DNA of 64,000 nucleotides from Chitinophagales bacterium. GTDB lineage: Bacteria > Bacteroidota > Bacteroidia > Chitinophagales > CAIOSU01. The stretch lies in NCBI GenBank assembly GCA_026003335.1, contig BPHB01000002.1:857363-921362 (forward strand). The letters run 5' to 3'. Of this stretch, positions 1-42,200 are shown piece after piece; within the stretch, counting starts at the first letter, position 1; the number at the start of each line of letters is the position of its first letter. Below the pieces are notes generated by a model. That model did no database searches. It was given only the letters and a program-made list of their open reading frames with translations, and was not told the origin of the DNA. A program made the position numbers and the translations under genes.

Positions 1-872
1 TCGTAGCCGTTGTCAAGCTGAGTGGAAAGCCAGTTCCACCCTACATCCCTGCGTTTTTGTGGTTTGCCGTTACTGCCGGCTTTATTTTCTTCATCCGGGG
101 GCTTTCCAAATTCGTGGTCATACCAGCCACTTCCGCTGACCTCAAATTTTTCTCCACGCACATATATATCGCCCTGAACGGTACAGCGCGGGATGAAATA
201 ATAAAACATGTTTTCGGCTGAAACCCCCAGCACTACTCCGTTATCACCGTGTCGCACCGGTGGTTTTTCGGGTTTGAGGTTGATGGTGCAGCCTATTTGC
301 TGTTCTTCATCATAGAGATGCAGGTCATAAGAGTTGTCCGCTCGTTTGCTGTAGGTATTCCCGTCAATGTATAATTCCAGCTGATCCATGCTCACCCTGA
401 CATCTTCTTTTATCAGGCGGTCAGGATAAGGCACCTGTCCCTTCTTCAGCATCTCAATGACAGCTCTGCGCAGGCGATGGTCTTTAACTATCTCTCCTTT
501 TTCTACTTTTTCCAGTCCAATCTTCGGGGTAACCTTATCCACCAATGAAACGGGGAAATATTTTTCCCTGCGTTCATCGCCTTTTTCATCATAAATAGCC
601 CATGTGATGGAGTGTCCGTAATTGAACCTTTTATTTTTTTCATCATATTCAATCAACCTGCGAAAAAAGGAAGCAAAGAAAGAAAACTGGCGACCCGAAG
701 GCGTGGATACATGGGCATTGATGTACCACCATTCTATGGTTGAGGACGCATGTGGCAGGTCATGCACTGTAAGATCAATAGGGCCGGGAGGTGGCCAGTC
801 GGTCGGATGTTTAAATCGCCCTGTCCTGTAGGTCTTGCTGGTTGCGGGTTTAGCCTTTACGCGTGTCTCCAT
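1..872 (-). CDS. CrtC/AttH-like lipocalin-fold hydratase family protein (N-terminal part; gene continues beyond window start)
   Basis: Absent from the ORF track because it has no stop inside the window. My minus-strand translation from the ATG at 872-870 stays open to position 1: METRVKAKPATSKTYRTGRFKHPTDWPPPGPIDLTVHDLPHASSTIEWWYINAHVSTPSGRQFSFFASFF...VSGSGWYDHEFGKP... The EWWY..H and WYDHEFG strings match what I recall of the hydroxyneurosporene synthase (carotenoid 1,2-hydratase)/AttH family. Family assignment is from memory. Confidence 0.55.
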   Translation of the reverse strand, partial: METRVKAKPATSKTYRTGRFKHPTDWPPPGPIDLTVHDLPHASSTIEWWYINAHVSTPSGRQFSFFASFFRRLIEYDEKNKRFNYGHSITWAIYDEKGDERREKYFPVSLVDKVTPKIGLEKVEKGEIVKDHRLRRAVIEMLKKGQVPYPDRLIKEDVRVSMDQLELYIDGNTYSKRADNSYDLHLYDEEQQIGCTINLKPEKPPVRHGDNGVVLGVSAENMFYYFIPRCTVQGDIYVRGEKFEVSGSGWYDHEFGKPPDEENKAGSNGKPQKRRDVGWNWLSTQLDNGY

Positions 873-922: not shown

Positions 923-1855
923 TTACGCCCGATGAAAAAACATTTTTTCAAAGGAGATGATGGTATTAAACCCTTTGTCCTTAAAATAGTGTATAACCTG
1001 ATTTACCGGCATGTCAGAACAGGCCATCACGAAGTCGCCACCCCATGCACCCAGTGACTTTACGGACCCCGGGAAATCCGGAAAAAGCAGCGTCTTAACC
1101 TTCTCCATGTGAAGCAGCTGAGCAAGGATATCTTCATGCTCTTCCATGAGCGATGCGAAGACGGCAGCTGAAGTGCAGCTAATCATGTTTTCGGTGATTG
1201 CAGAAATTTTAGTAACAAGGGAGGTATCTTTATACAGCCTGCGATAACTGCTCACGGCTTGCTGACTATTCTGTTTTTTCTCCAGATGGACGAAAAACAG
1301 CTGATGGGCGAAGGGTGGATTAAAATCAATCTCGTGCCAAAGTGGTTGCCCCTGACTTAACTGATAAACAACAGGGCGCGATGCACCGGCACAGGCTATG
1401 TCATATCCTGAACCGTCAGACACCGCAAAAAGCAGTTCAAACGGGTTGGTAGCTGACCAACACGCAATATTCCATATCAGAGAAGAGCTGCTGCCCAAGC
1501 CCCAGTTTAGGGGAAATTCCAGTTTTGCAGTTGCTTTAAGCGGATGAGGTGCTGCTAAAAATTGCGGATTCCTTTTGCGTGCTTCCCGTAAGAGTTCCTG
1601 CAGCAGGTAATGGGAGAGAGAGCCTTCTTTCTTCAGCACGCGAAAGTCAGTAGTCTCAAACGTGAGAGCCATCAACAGCTTATCGCGCTCATCACGGGTT
1701 TCCCAATACAAAAGATTCTCACGCCCCCCAGCAGGACGTATCTCCAGATGCTGTCCCATGCTGGTAGGAATGGCAAGTGCCCTGGCTCCTTCAAGGACTA
1801 AATATTCCCCGCTGAGCAGCAATTTGCCATGTGCATAAAAATGCCTTGGGGGCAT
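923..1855 (-). CDS. GHMP-family kinase (GYDIA subfamily), putative mevalonate-pathway kinase
   Basis: 310-aa ORF. It has the N-terminal HGKLLLSGEYLVLEGA, a GHMP motif-II-like PLNWGLGSSSSL and a GSGYDIACA string. It starts 4 nt downstream of the HMG-CoA reductase stop on the same strand. Confidence 0.75.
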   Translation of the reverse strand: MPPRHFYAHGKLLLSGEYLVLEGARALAIPTSMGQHLEIRPAGGRENLLYWETRDERDKLLMALTFETTDFRVLKKEGSLSHYLLQELLREARKRNPQFLAAPHPLKATAKLEFPLNWGLGSSSSLIWNIACWSATNPFELLFAVSDGSGYDIACAGASRPVVYQLSQGQPLWHEIDFNPPFAHQLFFVHLEKKQNSQQAVSSYRRLYKDTSLVTKISAITENMISCTSAAVFASLMEEHEDILAQLLHMEKVKTLLFPDFPGSVKSLGAWGGDFVMACSDMPVNQVIHYFKDKGFNTIISFEKMFFHRA

Positions 1856-1859
1856 CGGA

Positions 1860-3197
1860 TTATTTCTTTCCTACTCCGGTAAGCGGTGGGCGAATGGAAA
1901 TCAGAAAATTCCTCACTGCGGCATAAGATACCACGTGATGCTTGAAATATTCTTTAGCTTTTTCGGTTTCCTCTTCCGTTGCTTCAAACTGCTTGAGAAT
2001 ATTCAATAGGTGCATTTTCATGTGTCCTTTTTGAATTCCCACCGTTGTCATGGATTTCACTGCCGAAAAGTTATTGGCAAGGCCCACAGCAGAAGCAATC
2101 ATCATCAGTTCTCTGGCGGTGGGATTGCCCAGCATTTCAAGCGATAGTTTCACCAACGGATGCAGAGTGGTGAGACCCCCTACCACACCAAGCGCCATGG
2201 GCAGCTCTACTGCGAAGTGGAATTTTCCTCCATCCAGCTTGATATCCGAGAGGCTTTGATAGCGCCCCGAACGGGCAGCATACACGTGTGCACAGGCTTC
2301 TGTTGCGCGAAAGTCATTACCGGTAGCAATGACTACCGCGTCTGCGCCATTCATTATTCCCTTATTATGGGTGGCAGCACGAAAAACATCCACCTTGGCA
2401 ATCTTAATGGCCTTTGCAAATTTGGTTGCAAATTCTTCGGGTTGCATGCCCTCAATCACACCCAGCTCATGAATGGGGCATTCAACCCAGGTTCTGACAA
2501 TGCAATCGGGAGTGTAATTGGAAAGAATACTCATAATGACGCGGACATCCCGTTCCTCATCTGTAAAATCAGGATACACCAGTGCTTCCTGAGTCAGTGT
2601 GGCAGCAAAGTTTTCCAGCACGGAATTGATAAAGTTAGCCCCCATGGATTCGCATGTTTCAAAGGTAGCTTTTAGCTGATAGTAGTCCGGATCATACGAG
2701 GTCATATTTATCAGCTCAATATCCAGTATTCCGCCTCCGCGTTTTTCCATATTGCGGGTAATGGGATGCGCATTACGTATGAGGATTGGTTTGATATGAC
2801 GGATAAATTTTTTCAGTTTATGAAAATCTCCCCGCCAGGAAAAATGTACCTGCCCGATTTTTACGGTAGAAATGACTTCGGAGTGAAATCCGCCCCTCTC
2901 CAGCCAGAACTTGGCGCTACCTGCTGCAGCAGCTACTACCGAGCTTTCTTCAATTACCATAGGCACAGCATAGATCTTACCATTGATCATGAAGTTGGGA
3001 GCCACGTTGTATGGCATGTAAAAATTGGTAAGAGTATTTTCACTGAACTCATCAAAGAGCTTTTGCAGCTTTTCATCGTTATGCCAGTAGCTTTTGAATT
3101 CCTGTATAACCGCATCAGGGTTTTTAAAAAAATTGTGTGCCACCCATTCCAGCTTGGCCTGCTTGGAAAGTTTGGAGAAGCCTTCTACTCTTTTCAT
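1860..3197 (-). CDS. Hydroxymethylglutaryl-CoA reductase (class II-like)
   Basis: 445-aa ORF with VIEESSVVAAAAGSAKF, ESMGANFINS and ALGVVGGLT blocks typical of HMGR catalytic domains. The size fits bacterial class II enzymes. Confidence 0.88.
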   Translation of the reverse strand: MKRVEGFSKLSKQAKLEWVAHNFFKNPDAVIQEFKSYWHNDEKLQKLFDEFSENTLTNFYMPYNVAPNFMINGKIYAVPMVIEESSVVAAAAGSAKFWLERGGFHSEVISTVKIGQVHFSWRGDFHKLKKFIRHIKPILIRNAHPITRNMEKRGGGILDIELINMTSYDPDYYQLKATFETCESMGANFINSVLENFAATLTQEALVYPDFTDEERDVRVIMSILSNYTPDCIVRTWVECPIHELGVIEGMQPEEFATKFAKAIKIAKVDVFRAATHNKGIMNGADAVVIATGNDFRATEACAHVYAARSGRYQSLSDIKLDGGKFHFAVELPMALGVVGGLTTLHPLVKLSLEMLGNPTARELMMIASAVGLANNFSAVKSMTTVGIQKGHMKMHLLNILKQFEATEEETEKAKEYFKHHVVSYAAVRNFLISIRPPLTGVGKK

Positions 3198-3208
3198 ATT
3201 TTATGTTT

Positions 3209-4264
3209 TTATTGACGCACTTTTAAATAAGCATACGCCAGCTCCAGACCTTTGATTTGCCCGGCAATAAATTGTCGGAGCTGCTCATAGCTGTTGCGGG
3301 CATGCTCAAGGAGAGCCGAGCCCTGACCGTATACACTATTGGCCTGCAGCCTGTTTATCAGATAGTATCCATCCAAAAATGATTTGATGCCACCGGAGAT
3401 AATCACTTCGCGGCATAAAGCCTTTTTGCCCAGCTGTTGCAGGATTTGATTTGTAAAGTTTACCATTTCCGCGGCATCATGCCCCAGGTAGGCCACTTCA
3501 TCATACAGTGCACGCTGACTTGCCTTACTTCGCAGGAGTTCCACTTTGGAAAAGTTCGTGCCTCCGTGGGCTGCAAAATCCACGGCAGCCAAAGGCAAGC
3601 GGAACAATTCCCTGAGGCTCTGCGGGCCCATCCCCTGCCCTACCTCTTTTACGATGACTTTATAGCTGGCTTTTTCCAGCAGGGCTTTGATAGTATCCAG
3701 CGGTCTATGTTGTATTTTGTCGCCCTCTGGCTGCAGCCATTCCTGCAGGGGATTGATATGAATAATCAGACCATCGGCCTGCAGACGGACGACAAGGTTG
3801 TCTATGAGGTGTAACTTTTTGTCACGCACACAGGCCTCTACCTGTGCAATACCAAGGTTCGCATAAAAAGGACGGTCATCCCCCACAAGGGAGCGGAGGT
3901 TAAAATCATCAAAATAGCTATTGCCTTCCAGCAATATTCTGCAGGAGCCCAACCCCATGCCCAATCCAAACTCCCTGCAGGCCAGGGCAAGATTACGATT
4001 TATCTTATTTGCAAGCACGGTGCCCCCCGTCATACTGGAAATCCATAAAGGAGCCTTCATCGTTTTACCAAGAAAAGTAATGGGTTTGAGCGGCTCCGGA
4101 TGAGCTGACAAAACAGGCTCATAAAAAAACCTGGTATCCAACTGTCCATTCAACTGTGACTTAAAAGCCAGGGTGATATGATCTTTCTTGCGTGCAGAAG
4201 TTTTCTTCTCAGTTGTTTTTTCCTTTTGCACTCTGTTTTTTTGAACAGACATGATGGTTTCCAT
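3209..4264 (-). CDS. fni: Isopentenyl-diphosphate delta-isomerase, type 2 (FMN-dependent)
   Basis: Motifs WISSMTGG, LIIHINPLQE, VIVKEVGQGMG, AAHGGTNF and IISGGI. The track start at 4312 is a TTG that would overlap the HMGS gene. The ATG at 4264 (METIMSVQ...) leaves an 8-nt gap, so I prefer it. Confidence 0.9.
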   Translation of the reverse strand: METIMSVQKNRVQKEKTTEKKTSARKKDHITLAFKSQLNGQLDTRFFYEPVLSAHPEPLKPITFLGKTMKAPLWISSMTGGTVLANKINRNLALACREFGLGMGLGSCRILLEGNSYFDDFNLRSLVGDDRPFYANLGIAQVEACVRDKKLHLIDNLVVRLQADGLIIHINPLQEWLQPEGDKIQHRPLDTIKALLEKASYKVIVKEVGQGMGPQSLRELFRLPLAAVDFAAHGGTNFSKVELLRSKASQRALYDEVAYLGHDAAEMVNFTNQILQQLGKKALCREVIISGGIKSFLDGYYLINRLQANSVYGQGSALLEHARNSYEQLRQFIAGQIKGLELAYAYLKVRQ

Positions 4265-4272
4265 ATTCCGGT

Positions 4273-5763
4273 TTAATGATGTCTGGTTACACTTTGTCTG
4301 GTTATACCGCAATCTGAATTTGCCGCTTTACCGGATTCCGTCATCTGCGCACGGCCTTTAGTGGCTCCAGCTTTGGGGGCCGCAAAAGCATAGGTTCTTA
4401 CACCATAAAGTGGTTCTGCAGTGGCTACCGATTTGAGATAAAATTCATCTTCAGGAGGTAGTATGCTCTCCGTGATACTTCCGCTATGAAGGGCTTCATA
4501 CACATCAAAATCAATCGGTGTTCTTTGAAGCAAAGCATCAAACAAACCAAATTTATCCACGATGGGTTTCCACTCCTTTTGTACAACCCCTTCAAAAACC
4601 TTTGACTTTGATCCGCTGCCGTAAGTGCAAAAACCTACCCTCATGTTTTCCAGAGGCGTTCCATCTCTTAAATCTGATTCCAGTAAACTCATCAGTGATA
4701 AGAATACAGAACCGGTATAAAGGTTGCCTGTGAGGGATGAAGCCCTTTGTCCTTTTTCTATTTTTTCTCTAACAAATTGCTGATACAGAGGGGTTTTTGC
4801 AACTGTTTTTAAAGATTTGTTTTCCGGAAAAGAAGGGTCTTCTTCCAGTAATTGCTTACGCAACTCCGGATTGCGGATATATTCTTCCAGGAAGATTTCC
4901 GGAAACATTCTTTTTCCATGAAAGGCATAAGGCAGATGAAAAACGATACGCCCCCAGTCGCTGAGTTTATGCCGCGCTTTCAAACGGCTAAAATGCATAT
5001 AAGCCTGTTTTAACCTATTGGCGTAACATGTATTGGAATAAGGTCCATCAAAGACGGGAAATATTTTATGTATATCCAGGTAAGCTTCTTTGTCAGATAG
5101 AAACGGAAATGCGAACCCATCGGGAAGCTTGTCGCGGCTTATGCGTCTGAGGGGTTTAAAAAAATCGTGTTCACTGACTGCAGCAACGCCCACCGGTTCT
5201 TCTATTGCCAGCAGGCGGGGTTTCTGTCTGATCAGCAGGGCAACCGCTCCGGCACCCTGCGTATATTCCCCGGTGCTGCCCAGTTCATAGCGTGCATTAT
5301 CGGTACAAATCACAATGGCCGTGCGATTCTCACCCAGGCGTACCCAATCCAGTGTGTTATGCAGGGCATCCACCCCTCCGATGCAGGCAAAGGTCATGTC
5401 AACAACATCTGTATGCAGGAATGCGTGCGGGCCGTATTCGGGGTTGAAATAATCCGATAACATTGCCAGCACGTAGGATGCCAGCGGCTTTGCCCCGTCC
5501 ACAAGGCTTTCTGATCCAACATAAATTCTTCCGATTTCCTGAGGAGATAACTTATTTTTTTCTATAAGTTTTCTGGCCGCATTGGCCGCCATGGTTGCAG
5601 CATCTTCGTGTACGTCAGTAAGGCTCATGGCTTCAAGCCCCAGCCCGTCTTTGAGTTTTCCACAATCCAGATTACGGTGCCGGGCAAGTATCTCAATGGG
5701 CAGATATAACCTCGGAATATGAAAGGCCATATCATCAATACCGGTGAGAGGGGTTTGTTTCAT
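4273..5763 (-). CDS. Hydroxymethylglutaryl-CoA synthase
   Basis: 496-aa ORF with a thiolase-fold initiation-enzyme pattern: GIDDMAFHIPRLYL, an active-site-like DMTFACIGGVDAL, TQGAGAVALL and CTYGSGS. It sits immediately upstream of IDI2 and HMGR. Confidence 0.88.
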   Translation of the reverse strand: MKQTPLTGIDDMAFHIPRLYLPIEILARHRNLDCGKLKDGLGLEAMSLTDVHEDAATMAANAARKLIEKNKLSPQEIGRIYVGSESLVDGAKPLASYVLAMLSDYFNPEYGPHAFLHTDVVDMTFACIGGVDALHNTLDWVRLGENRTAIVICTDNARYELGSTGEYTQGAGAVALLIRQKPRLLAIEEPVGVAAVSEHDFFKPLRRISRDKLPDGFAFPFLSDKEAYLDIHKIFPVFDGPYSNTCYANRLKQAYMHFSRLKARHKLSDWGRIVFHLPYAFHGKRMFPEIFLEEYIRNPELRKQLLEEDPSFPENKSLKTVAKTPLYQQFVREKIEKGQRASSLTGNLYTGSVFLSLMSLLESDLRDGTPLENMRVGFCTYGSGSKSKVFEGVVQKEWKPIVDKFGLFDALLQRTPIDFDVYEALHSGSITESILPPEDEFYLKSVATAEPLYGVRTYAFAAPKAGATKGRAQMTESGKAANSDCGITRQSVTRHH

Positions 5764-5881
5764 AACTGGATTTTTTAAATACGCACCCTATTATGGGGCG
5801 TCAAAATTTATCAAAAAAGAAACCCCCATTATTGATGATTATCAAATTAAAAACCAGTGCAATTTGATGTAGAACCGGTTT

Positions 5882-7486
5882 CTACACTACAGCAGAATTC
5901 GTTTTTTTATTTTTTTTCATTTTGCGGTAAACCTCAGGAGAGGTTCGGCCTCTTACGGATACCTTTTCGTAAACCTCGTCAAAAGCCTGTTCGCATAAAG
6001 GAAGTTGTTCACGCATTTTATCATAGGCTGAGTGATCAAACATCTGCCTGAATTGGTCTCTTGTCAACATCGTACGGGCGTAAAGCGCCTGATAACCAGA
6101 ATGCTGCAGGACAAATTGCTCCAGACGGGGTAGCTCTACAGACGCATCAAACCCAGCTTTTCGCGGGGCGCCATATGCACCAATGTCTACGTATAGCTCA
6201 TCAATTTGCGCATCGGGTTTTTTAAACGGATGCAAAAAACCGATATGCTTTTCATTATCATAAATTGCCATCGGGCACAGCCACAGGGGATACAAATCAA
6301 AGTGCGATTGAAAATATTGCAAGGCGTCAGCCAGATAAAATATAGGGATGAGCATATCCTGCACGATATGATACCTATCGCGTAGTCGGGCTGTTGTTTC
6401 CGTCTGAGTATATTTCAACAGTGGTATCTTAGGAGGCACTGCCCATCCCAACAGAAAGCGAAAAACCGGATGATTGCCAAAAGGAATAATTTGTTCCATC
6501 TCCCAGAAAAAACTACGGGTGTGGCGATGATAGTAATGACGCAAAGGGATGTACTCCCCCATGCTGTCGGCATGATGCAGCATTTTTTCCACATGCTTAT
6601 AAAACCAGGGCTTATACCATCGTCCAATCGGATTGATGCGTTTTTTTTCGCCAGCAGGTACTTCATCGGTAAGCTGCCCACACAGAATAACGGCTTTATC
6701 CTGGCTGAAGACCAGCGCTTCTACAAAATCATTATCGGCCACATTTCTGCTTTCGGCCTCAAATATGCGCACTAACTCCTCTTGAGAATGAGCTTGCTTA
6801 TAGTGCATACGCACGTATTTTTTTGCTGGTATGATTTTTAATTCAGCTGCAACCAGAAAGCCCAGAGTGCCATGACTCCAGGGGATCAGATAAAACAATT
6901 CACTGTTTTGAGTTCTGCTGCACCGCAACAAAGTGCCGTCAGGCGTAAGCAGCTCAAAAGCTTCGCAGGAATATTGAAAGAGTCCGTATTTATGGCTGCT
7001 GGTTTCCACACCAAAACCCATAATCAGACCGCCCACGGTCAGATCATCAAGTTCGGGTACTACCGGTACCGTCCACCCTCTGGGAATGAGAGTCGCAGTA
7101 AGCTGACCCATCGTTACCATGGGTTCAACCCGCACAACACGCCTCTGCTCGTCTATTTCCAGTACATCTCTGAGATTTACCGGTATATTGCGATAAATTT
7201 TTTTGTATTTAGGTACCAGTTCGCTCATGGTGCTCCATCCCGAGCGTGCTGTGCAGAGCTTTTCTCTGGCGCCCTCATTACGCCATTGTTTGAGGTGCTG
7301 CTGAATTTTTCGTACACGTTCCTCGTGCAGGGCCGGAGCGCTACGCAGCAAAAGCGTTATCTTGTTTCGCAAAAAGAAGTACAAGTCATAGACGACAGAA
7401 AGCGGCAGCAGAAAGACGACCGCAAATACACCGCGATAATGCGTAAGCAGATATTCAAACAGACCCGAAGACTGATTGTTTTTCAT
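5882..7486 (-). CDS. Delta(24)-sterol reductase-like FAD-linked oxidoreductase (DHCR24/DWF1 family)
   Basis: Blocks [95 protein letters not shown] and YPLWLCP closely match animal DHCR24 and plant DWF1 as I recall them. There is an N-terminal hydrophobic helix. In-frame ATGs lie at 7555, 7519 and 7486; I chose 7486, which gives the smallest overlap with the upstream cyclase. Confidence 0.85.
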   Translation of the reverse strand: [534 protein letters not shown]

Positions 7487-9758
7487 TCGGATTAAGGTAA
7501 TGTTGACTTTCCAGCACATGTTTGCAACGAGATAAAGCCCACAAAGGGAAAACATTACGATAAGATGTATAAGTAATCATACAGTTATGGTTGAAAACCC
7601 CGCTTATGTTTTCCTGCGGCCAATCTCCATCGGTTTGTTGTCGCTGCAGCAGCAAAGTCATCCCTTTTTGAGCTCCGGCTCGGGCTTCCGGAAAATCACA
7701 GTTAAGCAGCGACATAACTGCCCAGGCGGTATGAATAATTTGGGAATGATCCGTCTCTGTATAGAGCTTTTTCACGCAAGACTGATAAGACTCGCCCCAT
7801 CCGCCATCGGACTTCTGCTTGGATAACAGAAACATCCCTGCCCGATAGAGTGCGTCAAGCATCTGTTTACGTAAGGCATTATCTACAGGCATGAACCCTT
7901 CCTGCATCGCGCGTAAATATGCGCGCAGTGCCTCGGTTGCAAACCATGTTCCATAGGTGAAGCAAACAGCCCACGAGCCATACCAGGAGCCATCGGGGCG
8001 TTGTTGTCGCAAAATAAAACCTATTCCGCGCCTTACGGCATCAGAGATCTGCGATGATTTATAATCAGGGTAGTGCCTGTTGAAAAGCAACAAAGCCTGT
8101 ACACATGCAGACGAGCACTCCGTGTAAGAATAGTCAATCATGATATTACCAAAAACCTCAGAAGGATTGAGCAACTCAAGCCATGCCGGACCCCGTGTGC
8201 ATTCGTAAGTTGCCCATCCCCCATCTTTGTTTTGCATGGATAATATCAGATTGACGGCCTGCTGCAATCTATTATCAGATATATTTTTTTTATCTACGAG
8301 ATCGTGCGTATGTATCAGCAAAACTGTTTTCAACCCCTCGGCCGTGCAATCGCTAATGGGCCATCCATGTTCAGAAGTGGAGAAGGGCCATCCGCCTACA
8401 GAATCGTGCCTGTAAAATTTTTTGTGCTCGCGGATTTCTTCCTTAATCTGTGCTACATCCAGATAATGGTATGCTTTTTCAATAAGGGGGTAAAAGTCGG
8501 AGGCTAGCCCTGATTCCATAATGGCCTGCGTGGCAAAGGCGGTATCCCATAGCTGCGAGCCGTTGTACCCCTGCATTTTCATACCATCTTCAGCCAGCCA
8601 AAGATAATCAAACCATCTTTCATAATGCTTTTTGAAAGCCTCCGAGTCTTTTCCGAACGCATGCCATACAACAATAGAGTTGATTACCTGATTGACGGGG
8701 CCTATGTTAATATACCCGGTATGATCATCTTCTGCACAGATGTAGCTGAGGATAAAATTTAATGCTCGTGACCTGAAAGCAGATATTTTTATTTTTTCAT
8801 ACACGTTGAGGAGCCGGTTTAAAAATTTCAGTACTCCTGACTGGGGGAAATATAAGTCGGTGGATGCACAGGCGTTCCTTGCCTGTATCCAGTCAATTTC
8901 CGCATAGGGCCGGGTGTAAATTTCCGTGCGCAATGCTTCGGTTAGCCTGGTGGTTCTTCCGGTGACACGATGACCGTAGCAATAAGACATAGGTAAATAC
9001 ACCATGCGTGCATGACACCAGAAGCGAGAGGGATGAAAGGGCAGACTTTCAGGCAGGAGCCACATTTCAGGGAACAATGAATTACATCCTTCCCATTCAT
9101 ACACTCCCAGCACGCTTAGATAAAATTTGCCCCAGGAAGGCACTCCAGTTGCTCCGCCATGAGCATGTATCCACGCACGTGCTTGAACCAACTCGGGTTC
9201 ATCGGGAGCATGCCCTAAAATCCTGAGAGCCACGTATTGCAGCACCGTTCCAAACATTGTGGAAGGACCTTCCAGATGCATACCCCAGCCTCCATCAGCA
9301 TTTTGATGGTTCAGAAAATAACGGGCAATAAGTGCACGGTGCGGGGCAGGCAAGGGCGATTCGGTTATATAAGAAGCAATAATCAGTCCCGGCAATAAAA
9401 ACATGGGCCCGCCATAATCTCCGGGCCAATAGCCTCCGGAGGTTTGCAAACGGGCATAAAATTCAATAGCTTTTCGTAGGGCTCCATTTAAACCAGTTTG
9501 CTGAGAAGGCTGATGTCTTTGGCCATTGGGGTGTTGGGCGGCTGCATGCCAGCGGTAAACTTTGTCTGAGCTGTTGACATTGCTGGTTTTGCTCCTGACA
9601 AAGGAAGCCGCCATTTCTTTCAGAAAAACACGCCCCCGCGGACCTTGCCAGTCTTCTTCAGTAAAATGATCAAAAGGCTCCGGAGGGCAAAATTGCCAGC
9701 GCTGTCTTCCATCCGGATCAAACAGTGGTTTCCAATATTTCCAATACGTTGTATTCAT
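7455..9758 (-). CDS. Oxidosqualene cyclase (cycloartenol-synthase-like)
   Basis: It has the DCTAEG catalytic motif (WPISDCTAEGLK) rather than the DxDDTA of squalene-hopene cyclases. It carries multiple QW repeats (QNADGGWG, QNKDGGWA, QRPDGSWYGSW, QKSDGGWGES, QQTDGDWPQ), plus MQGYNGSQLWDTAFA and an N-terminal GRQRWQF. An alternative ATG lies at 9791. Confidence 0.92.
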   Translation of the reverse strand: MNTTYWKYWKPLFDPDGRQRWQFCPPEPFDHFTEEDWQGPRGRVFLKEMAASFVRSKTSNVNSSDKVYRWHAAAQHPNGQRHQPSQQTGLNGALRKAIEFYARLQTSGGYWPGDYGGPMFLLPGLIIASYITESPLPAPHRALIARYFLNHQNADGGWGMHLEGPSTMFGTVLQYVALRILGHAPDEPELVQARAWIHAHGGATGVPSWGKFYLSVLGVYEWEGCNSLFPEMWLLPESLPFHPSRFWCHARMVYLPMSYCYGHRVTGRTTRLTEALRTEIYTRPYAEIDWIQARNACASTDLYFPQSGVLKFLNRLLNVYEKIKISAFRSRALNFILSYICAEDDHTGYINIGPVNQVINSIVVWHAFGKDSEAFKKHYERWFDYLWLAEDGMKMQGYNGSQLWDTAFATQAIMESGLASDFYPLIEKAYHYLDVAQIKEEIREHKKFYRHDSVGGWPFSTSEHGWPISDCTAEGLKTVLLIHTHDLVDKKNISDNRLQQAVNLILSMQNKDGGWATYECTRGPAWLELLNPSEVFGNIMIDYSYTECSSACVQALLLFNRHYPDYKSSQISDAVRRGIGFILRQQRPDGSWYGSWAVCFTYGTWFATEALRAYLRAMQEGFMPVDNALRKQMLDALYRAGMFLLSKQKSDGGWGESYQSCVKKLYTETDHSQIIHTAWAVMSLLNCDFPEARAGAQKGMTLLLQRQQTDGDWPQENISGVFNHNCMITYTSYRNVFPLWALSRCKHVLESQHYLNPNEKQSVFGSV

Positions 9759-9797
9759 TAAGTAAGTTGTACAATGCAACCAAATACGCATGCAATC

Positions 9798-9885: not shown

Positions 9886-11094
9886 ATGATACGGGAACTT
9901 ATACAATCCATGGAGCACCCATCGGAAATTATTGCCATGTTGCGGCTGAAGCTGGGTGGCTTTGACCTGGCTCACAACAAAGAGCCCCTTGACGTGGTTG
10001 CGGAGAAGTCCAGTGATAAATATTTCTGCTATGCTGCACTGAATGCGGTATCCCGATCTTTTGCCGTTGTGATTCAACAACTACCAGAAGAGCTCAAAGA
10101 TCCGGTATGTGTGTTTTATCTGGTTTTGCGAGGATTAGACTCCATTGAAGATGACATGACCTACCCCAGGGAGAAAAGGCTTCCTCTGCTCAGAAATTTT
10201 CACGCCAAGCTCTACCAGGAAGGATGGAACATTTCAGGAGTAGGAGACCAGAAAGACTATCGTCTGCTTCTGGAAAATTTTGACAAGGTTATCCGGGTAT
10301 TCAAAAAGTTAGATCCTGCATATAAAAATGTCATTGCAGATATCTGCGAGCGCATGGGTAACGGTATGGCTGACTATGCAGAGCGTTCAGTGACCACACT
10401 GGAAGACTATAACGAATATTGTTTTTATGTAGCCGGATTGGTGGGTATAGGTTTGTCCAATCTTTTTTCCGCATCCGGGCTGGAATCTCCAGAACTGCAA
10501 AAGCGAGAAGACCTTTCCCGGTCAATGGGCCTGCTGCTGCAGAAAACAAATATTTCGCGCGACTATTATGAAGACCTTAGCCTCGGACGTGCTTTCTGGC
10601 CTAAGGAGGTGTGGGGGAAATATTCAGATAATCTGGAATTGCTGCACAATGAGCCTGAGTCCAAAGCTGCGCTGGCTTGTCTGAATGAGTTAGTAACTGA
10701 TGCCCTGCAGCATGTTTCCAACTGTGTGATTTATCTGAATATGATTCGCCATCCGCAGGTATTTCGCTTTTGCGCCATTCCGCAGGTTATGGCACTGGCT
10801 ACTTTGGCAAAAATTTATAACAATCCGAATGTGTTTACGGAAGTCGTTAAAATCCGAAAGGGGATAGCCGCGAAAATGATGCTTTACATGAAAGACATGA
10901 ACTCAGTGAGGAAAGCGATGCTGGAATTTGTAGGTGATATTCATTTGAAACTGGACCCTGAAGATCCGAATTTCCTGAACACCAAAAAGGCGCTCAACAG
11001 AATTACAGAAGCGCTGGATGAAGTGAAATGGCGTGACCTAAGTATTCTTCCGCCCCGCTTAAAGGAATCAGGTGTAACCAAAAGCCTTACATGA
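9886..11094 (+). CDS. Squalene synthase (eukaryote-type farnesyl-diphosphate farnesyltransferase)
   Basis: 402 aa. It has the N-terminal HPSEIIAMLRLKLGG, YLVLRGLDSIEDD (first Asp-rich motif), YCFYVAGLVGIGLS, LQKTNISRDYYEDL and AIPQVMALATL. The C-terminus (KESGVTKSLT) has no hydrophobic tail. Confidence 0.9.
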   Translation: MIRELIQSMEHPSEIIAMLRLKLGGFDLAHNKEPLDVVAEKSSDKYFCYAALNAVSRSFAVVIQQLPEELKDPVCVFYLVLRGLDSIEDDMTYPREKRLPLLRNFHAKLYQEGWNISGVGDQKDYRLLLENFDKVIRVFKKLDPAYKNVIADICERMGNGMADYAERSVTTLEDYNEYCFYVAGLVGIGLSNLFSASGLESPELQKREDLSRSMGLLLQKTNISRDYYEDLSLGRAFWPKEVWGKYSDNLELLHNEPESKAALACLNELVTDALQHVSNCVIYLNMIRHPQVFRFCAIPQVMALATLAKIYNNPNVFTEVVKIRKGIAAKMMLYMKDMNSVRKAMLEFVGDIHLKLDPEDPNFLNTKKALNRITEALDEVKWRDLSILPPRLKESGVTKSLT

Positions 11095-12488
11095 ACGGCA
11101 TGCCCGCACAGATGCTCGCCCCGAAAACAGCGAGCGTATCCTCTGATAATGCCTATGTTTCCCAGGAATGGTATGATGTCTGCATCATCGGTGCCGGAGT
11201 GGCCGGTGGTGTGCTGGCAGCCTTTCTTGCCGATCATGGCAAGCGGGTAGCAGTCATTGAGCGCAATCTGGCGGAACCCGATCGCATCATCGGAGAGTTG
11301 CTGCAGCCCGGGGGGCTGCAGCAACTCTCCGCTATGGGCCTAAACCATCTGACCGAAGGTTTTGACGCACAGCCTATTGAAGGATATGCGCTGTTCATGG
11401 AGGGCAACAGCTTCAGTATCAAATATCCCGAAGGAAAAACCGGCAGAGGCTTCCGCAACGGCAAATTCATTAAAAAAATACGCGACTATCTTAGCTCCCA
11501 TCCTCACGTTACGCTTATAGAAGGGAGGGCGGATGACCTTGTTGAATCAAACGGAATCATTTGCGGAGTAAAATATCTTAGCAGCTCCGACCGACAGCAT
11601 CGCCAAGTTCATGCTTTCCTCACCGTAGCCAGTGATGGCATGTTTTCTTCTTTCAGAGAAAAACTTGCATACGGTGACAAGAAAGTTACCGGCTATTTTC
11701 TTGGTCTCATTCTCAAAGGATGTCTTCTTCCCCACCCCAATCATGGCCATGTAATCATCACCGACACCTCTCCCTGCCTGGTTTATCCTATTAGCTCGCA
11801 AGACATCCGGATATTGATTGATTTTCCCGGTGAACAACCTCCGCCAAAAGGAGTTGAGCTGATTTGTTTTCTGAAAGAAAAGATTGCTCCTCAACTTCCG
11901 CAATCTATACAACCTTCCTTTCTGGAAGCGATTGCAGAAAGTAAGTTCCGCTTTATGCCTAATCATCTCATTCCGGCCCGTCCGTGGTTCAAACAAGGGG
12001 CCGTGCTGTTGGGGGATTCGCTGAACATGCGCCATCCTCTTACCGGTGGAGGCATGACCGTTGCCCTTACGGATGTATATGTTTTAGGTTCACTTTTGCT
12101 TGAAAAGAAAAACACCTTTAACAGCCGTGCACTTGCCCTGGTAATACGAAGATTCTACCAACAACGCAGCAGCCACAATGCCACCATTAACATTCTGGCA
12201 GATGCTCTGTATAAAGTCATGAGGAGTCGCGAGCTCAAAATCGCCTGTTATAATTACCTGAAGCGCGGCAGCACCTACGCCTCCGAACCCGTGGCTATCC
12301 TCTCGGCCATCTCAAGAGACGTCCGTCTGCTGCTGAAGCATTTTTTTGCCGTAGCCTTTTTCGGAGCTTTTGACTTGCTTAAGCCTTATCCCACTTTATC
12401 AGGAGTCAAACGCGCTGTCCTTATGGTGCATGACGCAGTACGTATTATTTTTCCTCTTATACGAAACGAGCGCTTTAAGATCTTTTAA
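11091..12488 (+). CDS. Squalene monooxygenase (flavoprotein squalene epoxidase)
   Basis: It has VCIIGAGVAGG (GxGxxG), ERNLAEPDRIIGELLQPGG and GDSLNMRHPLTGGGMTVAL, as in eukaryotic SQLE/ERG1 as I recall them. Its start overlaps the squalene synthase stop (ATGA at 11091-11094). Confidence 0.9.
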   Translation: MNGMPAQMLAPKTASVSSDNAYVSQEWYDVCIIGAGVAGGVLAAFLADHGKRVAVIERNLAEPDRIIGELLQPGGLQQLSAMGLNHLTEGFDAQPIEGYALFMEGNSFSIKYPEGKTGRGFRNGKFIKKIRDYLSSHPHVTLIEGRADDLVESNGIICGVKYLSSSDRQHRQVHAFLTVASDGMFSSFREKLAYGDKKVTGYFLGLILKGCLLPHPNHGHVIITDTSPCLVYPISSQDIRILIDFPGEQPPPKGVELICFLKEKIAPQLPQSIQPSFLEAIAESKFRFMPNHLIPARPWFKQGAVLLGDSLNMRHPLTGGGMTVALTDVYVLGSLLLEKKNTFNSRALALVIRRFYQQRSSHNATINILADALYKVMRSRELKIACYNYLKRGSTYASEPVAILSAISRDVRLLLKHFFAVAFFGAFDLLKPYPTLSGVKRAVLMVHDAVRIIFPLIRNERFKIF

Positions 12489-13718
12489 CTAATACACCGC
12501 AATTTTTTGTTTAAACACTAAAGCGCCATCGTCCGTAATTACAGAAATTATGAACATGCCTCTTCCCATAAGCGGTATTTCGCTTATGGATGTATATCCT
12601 TCTGTATCCAACAGGATTCGCCCGGTGAGGTCCATTATGCGGATGTGATAAGTATATTCGGAATCGCCCTGTACACGTATATAAAGCACTTTGTTTTTAA
12701 CTTCTGTCATCACGCTTGTGCAATACCGCGGCCGCTGTTCAGGTAATGTAGTTGCCAATTTCCCGCTGAAAAGTAACTCTGCATAGACCGGAAGGTGATC
12801 GCTCATATAGTAAAGCGCTTGGCTGATATTTTCCGGCACGCAGACTCCCACTGGCGGATCAATAACCGCCTTATTAAAGTGCAGCCCGCAGTTGCCTATT
12901 GCCCTGCAGGATCCGGGAATCAGCTGCAGCCTATTTGCTCCGCTGGTTATATCTGCTGAATGAAAAATAAAATCAAACCGGTCATCCAGTCCACCAGTAG
13001 CACCACCGCCAAATGCCGCCAGTCGCGTGCTTTGCGTATGCAAGGCGGCAAAGTCAGGGTTGTTGCTCCATATGCCGGCCTGCAGCGGATCAAAGAGTGG
13101 CACCTCAGCCAATGAATCTACCAGAAGCTGGTAGCCTGCTTCCGAATAGGAATAGAAATTAAAGTCCCCACCAGCAAGAATGTTGACCGGTTCATCTAAG
13201 GCTTCATAAAACGCTTTAAGCCTAAGCAATTCATCATATCTCAGGTTTTCATTCTGGATGCCCTTACTGGAACGCAGATGCACTACAAACAGATTCAAAA
13301 AAACGGTATCCGTATAATTTAAGTAGTCGCCCTTTAAAAATATTTTGTAATAACTATGATCCCGTAAAGCAGTGGGAATATTTTCCTGGTGTACGATGCC
13401 TGTTTTTAATGCATTATAGAAAAGCATGTTGTCACTATCCGGTCCATTGATGAATGCAGCACGGGAATATGCGCCCGGAAAAACAGAATCTATTGCCTGA
13501 AGCAACATATCTGCTCCTGTATCATTAGTCAACTCACCAACCAAAAGCACATCAGGTTTTACAAAAGAGCAAATTTCTTTAAAATAAGTAGCCCGCTGCG
13601 GAGTACTGCCCGGATAATTCAACACATTATAATACATAACGCGCAGTGTATCCTGTGCATGCAGGATAATCTGCCCAAAGAGCAACAAAATTCCCAAAAG
13701 AGCCAAACGCAAATACAT
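12489..13718 (-). CDS. Secreted endonuclease/exonuclease/phosphatase (EEP) family protein with T9SS type A-like C-terminal sorting domain
   Basis: Signal peptide MYLRLALLGILLLFGQIILHAQ. EEP-like strings are RVMYYNVLNYPG, GGDFNFY and DRFDFIF..SDHLPVY. The C-terminal beta-rich ~80 aa ends in FKQKIAVY. Confidence 0.7.
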   Translation of the reverse strand: MYLRLALLGILLLFGQIILHAQDTLRVMYYNVLNYPGSTPQRATYFKEICSFVKPDVLLVGELTNDTGADMLLQAIDSVFPGAYSRAAFINGPDSDNMLFYNALKTGIVHQENIPTALRDHSYYKIFLKGDYLNYTDTVFLNLFVVHLRSSKGIQNENLRYDELLRLKAFYEALDEPVNILAGGDFNFYSYSEAGYQLLVDSLAEVPLFDPLQAGIWSNNPDFAALHTQSTRLAAFGGGATGGLDDRFDFIFHSADITSGANRLQLIPGSCRAIGNCGLHFNKAVIDPPVGVCVPENISQALYYMSDHLPVYAELLFSGKLATTLPEQRPRYCTSVMTEVKNKVLYIRVQGDSEYTYHIRIMDLTGRILLDTEGYTSISEIPLMGRGMFIISVITDDGALVFKQKIAVY

Positions 13719-16558: not shown

Positions 16559-19500
16559 CTACCTTATCAAAGTTAAGTTTCCTTTCTTTTCCAATGTGGC
16601 AGAGCCCTTTCCGGCCTGGATAAAATAGACGTATGTGCCGGTATCCTGTGGTTTTCCGCGATGGGTGCCATCCCACCCCAGATTTGTTGCTCCCTGACTT
16701 ACTTCCTGTATGTTATTGGAATAATATACCTGCTCACCCCATCGGTTGAAAATACGTATTTCGTAAAATTCAATGTTGTCCCCGAACACAGTAAAGAAAT
16801 CATTCACGCCATCACCATTGGGTGTAAATGCCTGTGGAATACGAATAAATAGTTCACAACTTTCAACACTAACTTTCAGGGTATCGTAATGCATACAGCC
16901 TGTAAGTGTATCCCGCCCTTCAACAATAAATACGGTACTGGATGAGCCGCTGAACACCGGGTCGGGAGCCTCCGGATTATCCAGACCGGTGGCTGGGGTC
17001 CAGCGATACACATGTGCTCCGGAAGCCGTGAGCTGCATCCTTTCTCCTGAACATAATAATGAATCTTCAGGTAAAGCGGTAATGGCGGGCAAGGGATTTA
17101 CTCTTATATGCACACTGTCGGTCTGTCCGCATCCATTGTCATCAAACACACGAATAGCATACGTTGCATCCGCATCTGGTTTTACAGTAATTGCTGGCAC
17201 AGTATCGCCCGTACTCCAGAGATAATTCACCCCATACTCTGTGAAATAATGTACTACTCCGTTCCATATCCGGGGTGTTTGCGGGGAACTGAACGGATAC
17301 GTGATGCCTGTGCCTTCATAATAGTTCAAATACCCATCTGATGCATGGATGTTGAGTGTGGATGTGCCATTGGTGTATTTCATTTGCGTGCCATTGGTAG
17401 TAGTGATATAGAAGCCATATGTACTGCCGGCAGGCATAGTAATATTCAGGTTGATAGGAATGCCCGTAGGATTGTTGCCGGCAGCCGTAGCAATACCGGT
17501 TGCCGTGCCAAGTAGTGTCCATGAGGTGGGGTCGGTTTCAGCTCCGATAAAGGAAGCCGGACGGTAATAAATGGCTACATCTGCTATGGCGGATGCATCA
17601 AAAAAAGCACTAAATCCCTTAATCACTAAGGGCACATCGGCTTTGAGGTTGAACATATGTCCATCTTCGCGGTTGAATCCGAAATTATCTGTTATGAATT
17701 CTTTGTTGAATCCGGCACCTCTGGCCTTAAGTTCCACAGATGCACCGTCACAAACGGCTGTATCTGTACCGGCATCTACGGTAAGTACTTCCACTACCTC
17801 AATATTAAAGGTGCTGGAACGTTGCCCGCAGATATTGAGCGCTTCCAGACTGAGCTGTGCTGTTCCTACGGAGTCAAACGTCAGAATAACTTCATTGTTG
17901 GAGGTATCTACGATAGTCCCCCATGACAAACCCCACTGATAATACGTTTCCGGTAGAAATGAAACATCATACAGGAAGGTATCACCCTGACAAACAACTG
18001 ATGGTCCGTTTATCGCAACGTTGGGAATAGTAGTAATAAAAATAGTGGCCAAAGGAGAATAATTGCCGGTACATCCATAATTGGTTTCACGCACCCGGAA
18101 AGTGTAAGGGCCCGGAGGAGCTCCGCTGAAATCTATCAGCAGCGGATTGAAAGGCCACTTCAGAGGGATGCCATTATTCAGGGAAGCGCTCAGCCACTCG
18201 TATTCTGATTCCGGATTATATGGACTTATGTACAAGGCCGCTATCTCGGTGTTGCAATAAACAGTTCGCTCGGGTATTACAGCCAGGTTATCTGCCGGTG
18301 CACCAATAGTAAGACGAATAATTGTTCCGTTGGAATTCCATGGATGGGTAGAGCTGTCTGCGATAATGCGCATATAATACACTCCTGGGAGTATACCCAG
18401 GGCTAGCAAGTCATTCAGTGGCGGTACCGTCAGAATAAAAGACGTAGATGACGTATCATATACAATACCTAAACCTCCCTCGTTGACCACGGTGAAAAAC
18501 ATCATATCCAGCAGTTGCACAATAAAGCGATTGCCCTGCAGGTAGCTTGCAAGAGTATCCCATTCGTGAATATCAATGTCCACGGTATCGGAAGCTCCGG
18601 AAGTACCGGAGATGCAAAAATGCAGATCAACCGTATTGTTTGTGGTTATGTCACAGTGTTTGATACAGAAAGGGCCGTATAATGACCCCACTGCAACTGG
18701 GCTGGTAGATACCACACGTATGTAGTAGTTACAACCCTCAGGTACGCGCGGAATCAATCCCGAAACAGTGCCAGGCATAGCGCCAATAGCCGGATCAAAC
18801 GTTTCGGAACTGGGAAGCGTTCCAAGCACCGAGTAAGCAGGAATGATGTTGTAAATAGTATCATAAATAATCGTTGTGTCCAAAACAACAATCGTATCCG
18901 GAGGGTTAATAATAGTGTCCAGGGTCACCAAAGTATCGGCAGTAATGAGCGTGTCGCGATATTCAAAGTTGCCTGCCGAGTCTGACAATTGCGCCACATA
19001 CACATTATTGTTATTATACACTCTGGTTGAAGTAAAAGGCACATCTATGGCACTGAGCGCACAAACCGTATCCTGATCAATCGTTACAATGGGCGTCATG
19101 GTTGTGATTACATTCGCACAGGAGTTTACCTGAACACAAACACTTGCCTGCCCGGTAATAAAGGGCTGAGGCGATACCCGCACCAGCCGCACTTTGTAGC
19201 AGCTTCCGGGTGCAACATTCCCGCTGATAATGACAGCCACGGCACCACTGGTTTGCTGATTGAGGATGTTAAACACACCCAGATTCGTGCGATTGGCAAA
19301 GCTGCCATTGGCTCCGGATAATTCAATGCGATAAGTTCCGTCACATAAGGGTGCATCCATGCTCCATTGTATAATCAGCGCACTCTGACGGCATATCGGA
19401 TTGGGAGAAACAAAATCAATATGCAGATTAGTACCAAACTGAGCATCATAAGTGCCCACCACGATAATATCATCAATAGCGAAGGAAGCCGATGGAGGAC

Positions 19501-41420: not shown

Positions 41421-42200
41421 ATGGCCTCCCGCGGAATTTACAACAGCCTTCTGCAAAGAAAGCAAAACAATATCCGATCGCTGGCAGTGCTGATTGATCC
41501 GGATAAGTGTGCATTAGAGAGGCTGCCCCATTTTGTTGTGCAGGCGCAACAGGCCGGAGCAGACTACTTTTTTGTGGGTAGCAGTCTGTTGGTACAGAAT
41601 ACCTTTTCAGAATGCCTGGTAGCTATTCGCAAATACGCGCATGTGCCGGTAGTCATTTTTCCGGGCAGTTGTTACCAGGTGAGTCCGCTTGCCGATGCGA
41701 TCCTGCTGTTATCGCTGATTTCGGGGAGAAATGCCGAATTTCTTATCGGCCAGCAGGTTGCCGCAGCTACGGCTCTCAAAAAAAGTAATCTTGAAATCAT
41801 ATCTACCGGCTATGTATTAATTGATGGCGGACGCCTCACTTCCGTGCATTACATCAGCCAGACTCTGCCTGTTCCGGCGGATAAGCCCGACATTGCAGTA
41901 GCCACAGCCCTGGCAGGTGAGATGCTCGGGCTGAAAACTATCTATCTGGAAGCCGGTAGTGGCGCTGCAAAGTCCGTAAGCCCTGCCATGATCAGTGCAG
42001 TGCGCGAAAACATCAGCATACCCCTGCTGACAGGAGGAGGCATACGGGATGCTGAGAAAGCTTTTGCCATTGCCCGTGCCGGAGCAGATGTTGTTGTAAT
42101 CGGCAACAGCTTTGAACAAGACCCCTCTCTGCTTTTTGAAATGGCTTGTGCTGTGCATGAAGCCGGTCATTCTTCCCAAACACAAATACATTCCCCTTGA
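41421..42200 (+). CDS. Geranylgeranylglyceryl/heptaprenylglyceryl phosphate synthase family protein (PcrB/GGGPS)
   Basis: 259 aa, TIM-barrel-like, with AVLIDPDK, ADYFFVGSS, IYLEAGSGA and LLTGGGIRDAEKAFAIARAGADVVVIGNSFE. Confidence 0.8.
   Translation: MASRGIYNSLLQRKQNNIRSLAVLIDPDKCALERLPHFVVQAQQAGADYFFVGSSLLVQNTFSECLVAIRKYAHVPVVIFPGSCYQVSPLADAILLLSLISGRNAEFLIGQQVAAATALKKSNLEIISTGYVLIDGGRLTSVHYISQTLPVPADKPDIAVATALAGEMLGLKTIYLEAGSGAAKSVSPAMISAVRENISIPLLTGGGIRDAEKAFAIARAGADVVVIGNSFEQDPSLLFEMACAVHEAGHSSQTQIHSP

Follow-up and report, generated by a model that had tools for sequence, protein, structure and literature searches.

What does a sterol side-chain reductase of the eukaryotic type do in a bacterium of the phylum Bacteroidota, next to an oxidosqualene cyclase? 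The question is raised by a window of 64,000 nucleotides, i.e. the whole stretch of DNA analysed here, from a Chitinophagales bacterium (GenBank assembly GCA_026003335.1, contig BPHB01000002.1, positions 857,363 to 921,362). At 5882..7486 on the minus strand it encodes a homologue of the sterol delta24-reductase DHCR24. We consider it likely, at a probability of roughly 0.7, that the protein is a functional, membrane-anchored, flavin adenine dinucleotide (FAD)-dependent sterol delta24(25)-reductase which is co-transcribed with a cycloartenol-type oxidosqualene cyclase (OSC), that its product is cycloartanol or a saturated derivative, and that the gene is a later bacterial acquisition.

The first-pass annotation, made from the sequence alone, had reported an open reading frame (ORF) at 5882-7486. 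The ORF is present and has 534 codons for amino acids; it runs on the minus strand. A plus-strand reading of 5882-7486 was ruled out by its many stop codons. An alternative ATG upstream at 7555 would extend the ORF to 5882..7555 and the product to 557 amino acids. The 534-residue form was preferred because this protein (MKNNQ...) is identical to the NCBI protein KatS3mg031_2363 from a Chitinophagales metagenome-assembled genome (MAG; 1.12-Mb contig), because gene calling on an independent Logan assembly (run DRR290133) gave the same form, and because homologues start to align at residues 1-13 of this form. All 11 peptide blocks that had been quoted at the outset were found in it, at residues 20, 49, 118, 144, 202, 291, 312, 334, 373, 399 and 430.

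Is the protein a DHCR24 over its entire length? As a mammalian reference we used DHCR24 from Zalophus (516 amino acids), which had been retrieved with a human DHCR24 sequence and is 97% identical to it. BLASTP gave 52.1% identity over 505 residues. In a multiple alignment (A1) 261 of the 503 aligned columns were identical (52%), corresponding to 48% over all 547 columns. The similarity is collinear from end to end and includes the C-terminal substrate domain. The alignment covers residues 23-515 of the 516-residue mammalian protein; the reductase is of full length and not 'near-full-length' as had been thought. Identities to DHCR24 from sea urchin, brachiopod, sea anemone and beetle were 51-55%, to a red alga homologue (MMETSP tag) 44.6%, and to a DWF1-type protein from the fern Pteridium 37.5%. 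The estimate by eye of an identity 'well above' 50% was right as to about 50% and overstated beyond that, and an 'almost verbatim' agreement with plant DWF1 did not hold at 37.5%. The two blocks of human DHCR24 which had been cited in the first reading are verbatim in mammalian DHCR24 entries. A phmmer search of a library of 1.8 billion proteins returned DHCR24-family representatives with E-values down to 5e-150. Those named by source, few in number, were delta24-sterol reductases or eukaryote entries, and most others were unnamed metagenome proteins; at the 50%-identity level the named representatives include fern, willow/poplar, Chara and the fungus Catenaria. The reductase is a genuine full-length member of the DHCR24 family and resembles the animal type more than the plant type.

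A PCMH-type FAD-binding domain extends over residues 103-190 approximately (6917..7180, minus strand; Pfam PF01565 FAD_binding_4, E 5.7e-15, 55.7 bits vs. a cutoff of 26.4). It had been proposed as a check on the assignment, lies above the cutoff and is the sole Pfam domain. The architecture of the geranylgeranyl reductase (GGR) family, to which the bacterial sterol reductase Bsr belongs, is thus absent. Bsr reduces sterols at C-24 in Myxococcota and Cyanobacteria and is often clustered with sterol genes (PMC12004948), yet in its GGR fold it is unrelated to the VAO/PCMH family. It is an analogue, not a homologue.

The N-terminus carries a single hydrophobic helix, presumably a membrane anchor (residues 20-40, 7367..7429, minus strand). 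The Kyte-Doolittle scan displayed one N-terminal membrane-like cluster with its peak at residues 20-38 (2.14). The sole peak above 1.9 is at residues 19-21, and lower windows above 1.6 from residues 13-14 overlap the same cluster. An AlphaFold model built from a 35-sequence alignment (pLDDT 80.4, pTM 0.83) has the two-domain VAO/PCMH fold and a helix at 18-46, a region which aligns with the N-terminal helix of animal DHCR24. Hydropathy scan and model agree with the one N-terminal helix noted in the first reading. A solved DHCR24 structure was not found in the PDB by sequence or fold search, which returned only distant enzymes of the VAO family. The best Foldseek match of the model was DprE1 (E 1e-17, 15-17% identity, target-normalised TM about 0.7), which was also the best PDB match by sequence (2e-8). 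The region of the FAD domain was matched by DprE1, cytokinin dehydrogenase and galactonolactone dehydrogenase, both in sequence and in fold.

These matches raise the question whether the protein might be a non-sterol enzyme which merely resembles DHCR24, either a generic bacterial FAD-linked oxidase or a reductase of another isoprenoid, e.g. squalene or a polyprenyl tail. The only Pfam and NCBIfam hits are to generic FAD-oxidase models, the nearest solved structures are DprE1 and lactone dehydrogenases, and the locus also contains prenyl-chain enzymes. NCBIfam, however, holds no DHCR24 model, and its matches to lactone oxidases, DprE1 and GlcD are sub-threshold and limited to the FAD domain. 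The oxidase models scored about 50 bits against cutoffs of 290-570. An identity of 52% to DHCR24 over the full length, C-terminal substrate domain included, and the overlap of the gene with that of a sterol cyclase speak against a non-sterol function as well. In the trees the protein does not nest among generic FAD-linked oxidases, the outcome that was to speak against the assignment; it groups inside animal and methanotroph DHCR24. A non-sterol role appears very improbable.

How close is the reductase to the animal enzyme in detail? The positions mutated in desmosterolosis are, in human numbering, R94, R103, E191, N294, K306, Y471 and E480. Equivalents of R94, E191, N294, K306 and Y471, five of these seven, are kept. 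With animal DHCR24 (seladin-1) the protein shares the conserved blocks, the N-terminal anchor, the FAD domain and a collinear identity of 51-55%. The animal enzyme acts on desmosterol or lanosterol, whereas here the gene is part of a bacterial operon, the substrate is probably a 4,4,14-trimethyl cyclopropyl protosterol, and the equivalents of R103 and E480 are replaced.

The OSC gene (7455..9791, minus strand) lies immediately 5' of the reductase gene. Its product has the Pfam domains SQHop_cyclase_N and SQHop_cyclase_C and contains the motifs MQGYNGSQ and EHGWPISDCTAE. The score with the NCBIfam model TIGR03463 was 745 bits, under the curated cutoff of 851; the broader squalene/oxidosqualene cyclase model TIGR01787 was passed with 706 bits (cutoff 323). 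The location directly downstream of the cyclase, as reported initially, can be put more tightly. The OSC stop codon (TGA, 7457-7455) falls inside the reductase ORF, which starts with ATG at 7486-7484, and the two genes overlap by 32 nucleotides (7455..7486, minus strand). No terminator-like site or hairpin was detected in the gaps between the operon genes, including OSC-reductase. Matches to sigma-70-type promoters were rarer than in shuffled sequences, a scarcity which fits the different promoter type of Bacteroidota. The reductase is probably co-transcribed and translationally coupled with the OSC. At the other end of the gene, a perfect 7-bp inverted repeat with a 5-nucleotide loop (TGTAGAA-ACCGG-TTCTACA, 5868-5886, minus strand) overlaps the reductase stop. 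It is without a T-run and was not called a terminator.

Which sterol would the cyclase supply? The OSC carries Y/H/I at the equivalents of human positions 381, 449 and 453, with these positions assigned by motif and not read from an alignment numbered on human OSC. This is the signature of cycloartenol synthases, in which position 453 is diagnostic (PMC2817430; PMC4919349). The I453-type motif H-G-W-P-I-x-D occurs in 109 of the 120 best OSC homologues. Because of Y381/H449/I453, cycloartanol and not dihydrolanosterol is the expected reductase product; the first-pass annotation had left the choice between these two. The Bacteroidete Fluviicola taffensis makes cycloartenol (PMC4919349). The plant DHCR24-family enzymes SSR2 (Solanum) and Dioscorea SSR turn cycloartenol into cycloartanol (PMC10267570). 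Methanotrophs with a DHCR24 homologue produce C-24-saturated sterols, and Methylosarcina lacus, which has no homologue, is devoid of them (PMC4919349). Taken together, the Fluviicola product, the plant SSR reaction and the tracking of homologue and C-24 saturation in methanotrophs suggest that the substrate made by the neighbouring enzyme should be cycloartenol. Judged from sequence and gene context, the reduction of cycloartenol to cycloartanol is the most likely function, with activity, substrate, cofactor and end product all deduced in this way. The plant SSRs belong to the same superfamily and carry out the same reaction as predicted here, yet they are located on a different branch of the tree (about 37% identity for the fern member), and in plants cycloartanol is an intermediate of cholesterol synthesis whereas here it may be the end product.

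The N-terminal helix would anchor the reductase in the cytoplasmic membrane and the PCMH domain would bind FAD. A nicotinamide cofactor (NADPH in the animal enzyme) would donate a hydride, which the flavin would relay to C24=C25 in the sterol side chain. The product would be cycloartanol (24,25-dihydrocycloartenol); should the genome encode additional enzymes at other sites, it could be a saturated derivative.

Since the family includes the plant enzymes DWF1/SSR1, one may ask whether the protein isomerises and reduces delta24(28) sterols, i.e. those with a 24-methylene group, instead of delta24(25) sterols. Some plant members do both reactions (PMC10267570). The identity of 37.5% to the fern DWF1-type protein and the position of plants and Chara outside of the group of animal and bacterial sequences argue against this. 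A gene for a sterol C-24 methyltransferase is absent from the window, and C-24 methylation was not observed in any bacterium surveyed (PMC4919349). A DWF1-like activity is thus even less probable than the non-sterol role considered above, and we return to delta24(25) reduction.

What surrounds the pair of genes? Squalene synthase (9886..11094, Pfam SQS_PSY 1.9e-50) and squalene epoxidase (11091..12488, Pfam SE 3.4e-83) are on the plus strand, divergent from the cyclase. On the minus strand the next gene 3' of the reductase codes for 3-hydroxy-3-methylglutaryl-coenzyme A (HMG-CoA) synthase (4273..5763, Pfam HMG_CoA_synt_N and HMG_CoA_synt_C). It is followed by a 351-residue protein resembling type 2 isopentenyl-diphosphate isomerase (3209..4264, NCBIfam TIGR02151 2e-55, below the curated cutoff), HMG-CoA reductase (1860..3197, Pfam PF00368 6.5e-84) and a GYDIA-family GHMP kinase, a candidate for a kinase of the mevalonate pathway (923..1855, NCBIfam NF040656 1.7e-102, above cutoff). 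The last gene at this end (1..872, minus strand) is the 5' part of a reading frame which continues past the left end of the window. On the Logan contig L017 it is complete at 16615-18936 and encodes a fusion of 773 amino acids with a CrtC-N lipocalin domain, Lipocalin_9 and a polyprenyl synthase; the translations from L017 and the window are identical. A lipid-binding module fused to a prenyl synthase of the farnesyl diphosphate type is unusual and might channel or sense isoprenoids. Beyond the window L017 continues with mevalonate diphosphate decarboxylase and a second GHMP kinase, up to 20981. The order on one strand is OSC, reductase, HMG-CoA synthase, isomerase-like protein, HMG-CoA reductase, GHMP kinase and fusion protein. 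The full mevalonate pathway is contiguous with the sterol genes in a single locus of about 19 kb which leads from HMG-CoA to sterol (window 923-5763 plus L017 16615-20981). With its mevalonate pathway, prenyl synthase, squalene synthase, epoxidase and cyclase the locus would cover the route completely, and the reductase would then saturate C24=C25.

Is the reductase the only tailoring enzyme? We inspected about 68 kb, i.e. the 64-kb window and some 4 kb past its left end; the main contig of the MAG by itself measures 1.12 Mb. Pfam and NCBIfam searches of this span returned no P450/CYP51, no Rieske oxygenase SdmA, no ERG24/ERG4-type reductase and no sterol methyltransferase. The initial claim that the cluster otherwise stops at the protosterol stands for this span only. 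The sterols may first be processed by C-14 or C-4 demethylation or by cyclopropane opening, with the genes located elsewhere, and the same reductase would then contribute to a more elaborate C-24-saturated sterol. The homologue in methanotrophs lies beside or near a CYP51-ferredoxin gene and works on demethylated sterols, and bacterial sterol genes are often scattered; in Methylococcus capsulatus MCA1404 is unlinked to MCA2872/2873 (PMC4919349). The limited span inspected points the same way. On the other hand, neither a sterol-type P450 nor one of the other enzymes listed was seen in the span inspected, the packing of everything from HMG-CoA synthase through cyclase into one locus argues for a self-contained module, and Fluviicola and Eudoraea have epoxidase and cyclase only (PMC4919349). 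We regard a longer pathway as unlikely, though well above the two alternative activities discussed so far. The specific proposal of a minimal, self-contained pathway of epoxidase, cycloartenol synthase and DHCR24-type reductase with in-cluster mevalonate genes, which ends at cycloartanol and arose by insertion of a methanotroph-type, ultimately holozoan-like gene into a native Bacteroidota cluster, is put forward tentatively, at somewhat less than even odds.

Where did the reductase gene come from? The nearest relative in a collection of 5.8 billion proteins is 71% identical and is encoded by an uncultured Chitinophagaceae MAG on a contig of 5.7 kb (L001). There, too, OSC, reductase and HMG-CoA synthase follow each other in this order, the OSC is 68% identical, and the first-ATG ORFs of OSC and reductase also overlap. 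The other top matches were 60-64% identical, and all named ones are from Methylococcales or unclassified Gammaproteobacteria (Methylocaldum, Methylobacter, Methylosarcina, Methylomicrobium). A second group of methanotroph sequences was 47-51% identical (Methylothermaceae, Methyloprofundus, Methylomonas and mussel symbionts). A scan of genome collections for close relatives with peptide patterns derived from the query, which was not exhaustive, uncovered this Chitinophagaceae MAG as the only one besides the host studied here. A scan of JGI metagenomes, equally with query-derived patterns and not exhaustive, yielded no relative above about 53% over the full length and only methanotroph-type and intron-containing eukaryotic genes. 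The latter are split DHCR24 genes on the contigs L045 and L047-L052; in one block the identity between their short exons and the reductase is as high as 86%, which marks the block as highly conserved across domains.

The two Chitinophagales sequences grouped together with 99% bootstrap support and joined the first methanotroph clade with 100%. They paired with animals alone in 0% of the replicates. Catenaria, the red alga, Chara and the fern branch farther out. In a tree of the 120 best matches five sequences (P0022, P0031, P0036, P0056, P0103) branch below the Chitinophagales pair in 98% of the replicates. Their contigs are bacterial and carry no diagnostic genes, and exact searches with nine housekeeping proteins encoded beside them, plus one from the P0003 contig L018, returned no named entry. 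A nesting of the pair within Methylococcales specifically does not follow from this tree. As a separate observation, the Methylococcales possess two well-separated DHCR24 clades, one with Methylocaldum, Methylobacter, Methylosarcina and Methylomicrobium, the other with MAGs of Methylothermaceae, Methyloprofundus and Methylomonas, which were grouped in only 1.5% of the bootstraps. This hints at more than one acquisition or at an old divergence. Another sequence, P0121 (L019 52-7459), is placed next to the Chitinophagales and methanotroph clade with 81% bootstrap support; on its 7.5-kb contig it is located beside a gene for a DDX60-like helicase of 1897 amino acids.

In the first reading the gene was a strong candidate for inter-domain transfer. 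A direct transfer from a eukaryote into Chitinophagales is not indicated, because the pair goes with the first Methylococcales clade at 100% and never with animals alone; the nearest relatives are bacterial (71% and 60-64%) as against 51-55% for animals and 37.5% for the fern. An inter-domain origin of the bacterial DHCR24 clade as such has already been published for Methylococcus (PMC2817430, 2009; PMC8237579, 2021). According to the 2021 inference DHCR24 evolved within eukaryotes (PMC8237579), and the present tree agrees. The source of the bacterial clade, as derived from this literature, would be a holozoan-like eukaryotic gene. The bacterial homologues had further been described there as discussed mainly for cholesterol-producing myxobacteria. 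They were in fact described first, and mainly, in methanotrophs (PMC2817430, PMC4919349), and several cholesterol-making myxobacteria use the geranylgeranyl-reductase-type Bsr instead (PMC12004948).

Could the gene stem from contaminating eukaryotic DNA, from a chimeric assembly or from a very recent transfer directly out of a eukaryote? The protein is strikingly animal-like (51-55%), and metagenome collections do contain eukaryotic DHCR24 genes with introns. Yet the ORF is uninterrupted and overlaps an OSC gene of the Bacteroidota type, the same arrangement recurs in an independent assembly as well as in another MAG, and the proteins nearest to it are from bacteria, a placement with 100% bootstrap support. 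In composition and codon usage the gene fits its host: GC is 0.46, GC at third codon positions 0.47, and the codon-usage distance is within one standard deviation of the window genes, i.e. compared with these genes neither GC nor codon usage gave a signal of recent transfer. The window itself carries hallmarks of Bacteroidota, namely sorting domains of type IX secretion and PorE. This alternative is effectively refuted.

The cyclase has a different set of relatives. The 120 best OSC matches were 54-66% identical, and the named ones are Bacteroidota/Chitinophagales MAGs except for two rice (Oryza) cycloartenol synthases; no methanotroph was among the named relatives in these 120. Three Bacteroidota OSC neighbourhoods were sampled. 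In these the cyclase either stood by itself or was transcribed divergently from synthase and epoxidase, and in none of the three was a reductase or a mevalonate gene beside it. The clusters known from Fluviicola taffensis, Eudoraea adriatica and many MAGs have the same core of synthase and epoxidase divergent from a cycloartenol-type OSC (54-66%) as the locus described here, whereas the reductase beside the cyclase and the adjoining mevalonate genes are missing in those sampled. For Fluviicola and Eudoraea no C-24 reductase homologue is listed (PMC4919349). Reductase relatives in Methylococcales, OSC relatives in Bacteroidota and neighbourhoods without a reductase together point to an add-on from bacterium to bacterium. 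The core of cyclase, synthase and epoxidase would be native to Bacteroidota, and the reductase would have been gained later from a clade otherwise found in Methylococcales. Most economically, then, a native Bacteroidota cycloartenol cluster gained a methanotroph-type reductase some time ago, with the direction read from the distribution of the genes. Since then the two Chitinophagales lineages have drifted apart, with about 70% identity left between them (68-71% at the protein level).

How does the gene differ from its methanotroph counterparts? The Methylococcales homologues (MCA1404 of M. capsulatus, P0019 of Methylocaldum, P0098 of Methylobacter) are of the same family, 60-64% identical and of the same length, with an N-terminal helix and an FAD domain. 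They form the sister clade with 100% bootstrap support, and their presence correlates with C-24-saturated sterols (PMC4919349). The hosts are Gammaproteobacteria, in contrast to Bacteroidota here. The methanotroph gene lies beside or near CYP51-ferredoxin in a demethylating pathway of the lanosterol type, whereas here it overlaps a cycloartenol-type cyclase, has no CYP51 nearby and is merged with mevalonate genes. Specifically, in Methylocaldum it follows CYP51-ferredoxin a few kb from cyclase and epoxidase, and in Methylobacter it is about 3.6 kb away from such a cluster. The Methylocaldum locus (AP017928; L055 10001-18618) has another feature. The reductase, directly after CYP51-ferredoxin, is followed by OrfB/TnpB and a Y1 transposase, both of the IS200/IS605 type, and by Plasmid_RAQPRD and DUF3262 genes, both resembling those of conjugative elements. 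The position at the edge of a mobile region is relevant to the spread of the reductase gene.

Several points weigh against the reading as a cycloartenol reductase of the described descent. In the reductase R103 is changed to L and E480 to Q; the other bacterial homologues in alignment A1 also differ at these two positions. Bootstrapped neighbour-joining was the one method used for all trees. For a grouping of animals with the bacterial clades the support is no higher than 70-74%, i.e. 70% for animals with Chitinophagales and the first methanotroph clade when only labelled taxa are counted, and 74% when the second methanotroph clade is added. A direct biochemical assay of a bacterial DHCR24 homologue was not found in the literature consulted, and the evidence in methanotrophs is correlative. 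Cycloartenol is made by Cystobacter fuscus, which also possesses a homologue of the C-24 reductase, yet a saturated product was not detected there (PMC4919349); accordingly, the presence of a homologue does not guarantee that cycloartenol is reduced. Finally, the span of about 68 kb leaves room for tailoring enzymes elsewhere in the genome.

The host is presumably a moderately thermophilic member of Chitinophagales. Locus-tag prefix and run accession lead to the Katase hot-spring sediment metagenome (52 °C; PMC9671151), in which KatS3mg031 would correspond to the MAG mg031. The long-read metagenome paper on this spring does not mention sterols (PMC9671151), and the literature searched contained neither a report of bacterial cycloartanol nor a paper connecting Chitinophagales with sterol biosynthesis. 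That bacteria have enzymes of this family and that these are eukaryote-like in their phylogeny was known from earlier publications, as was the family itself; to this extent the finding is incremental and not surprising. New are the host phylum, the arrangement in one operon with a cycloartenol synthase and mevalonate genes, and the prospect of a minimal pathway to a saturated protosterol; for none of the three did the literature searched contain a report. The DHCR24-type side-chain reductase is extended to a third bacterial phylum, and such genes apparently move between bacteria and can be bolted onto an existing minimal cluster. If the prediction is correct, this is a bacterial sterol pathway in which side-chain saturation is the only tailoring step. 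The organism would then be the first bacterium to make a cyclopropyl protosterol with a saturated side chain, and the first of the Bacteroidota with a DHCR24-type reductase. Bacterial sterols bear on the reading of sterane biomarkers and on the origin of the eukaryotic pathway; a saturated 4,4,14-trimethyl cyclopropyl sterol, formed near 50 °C, would be a potential source of sedimentary hydrocarbons of the cycloartane/lanostane type. The set of genes is compact, with about 19 kb covering the way from mevalonate to the saturated sterol, and should be handy for heterologous production and for tests of the substrate range of bacterial DHCR24 enzymes.

The remaining 50 kb or so of the window code for cargo of type IX secretion, PorE, an extracytoplasmic function sigma factor, glycosyltransferases, RecR, Rho, MetH, RsgA and housekeeping proteins. 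A gene of the endonuclease/exonuclease/phosphatase family with a signal-peptide-like N-terminus (12489-13718, minus strand) is convergent with squalene epoxidase, the two abutting at 12488/12489, and has no evident link to sterols. Amid housekeeping genes, a PcrB-family gene (41421-42200, plus strand) encodes an isoprenoid-lipid enzyme similar to geranylgeranylglyceryl/heptaprenylglyceryl phosphate synthase.

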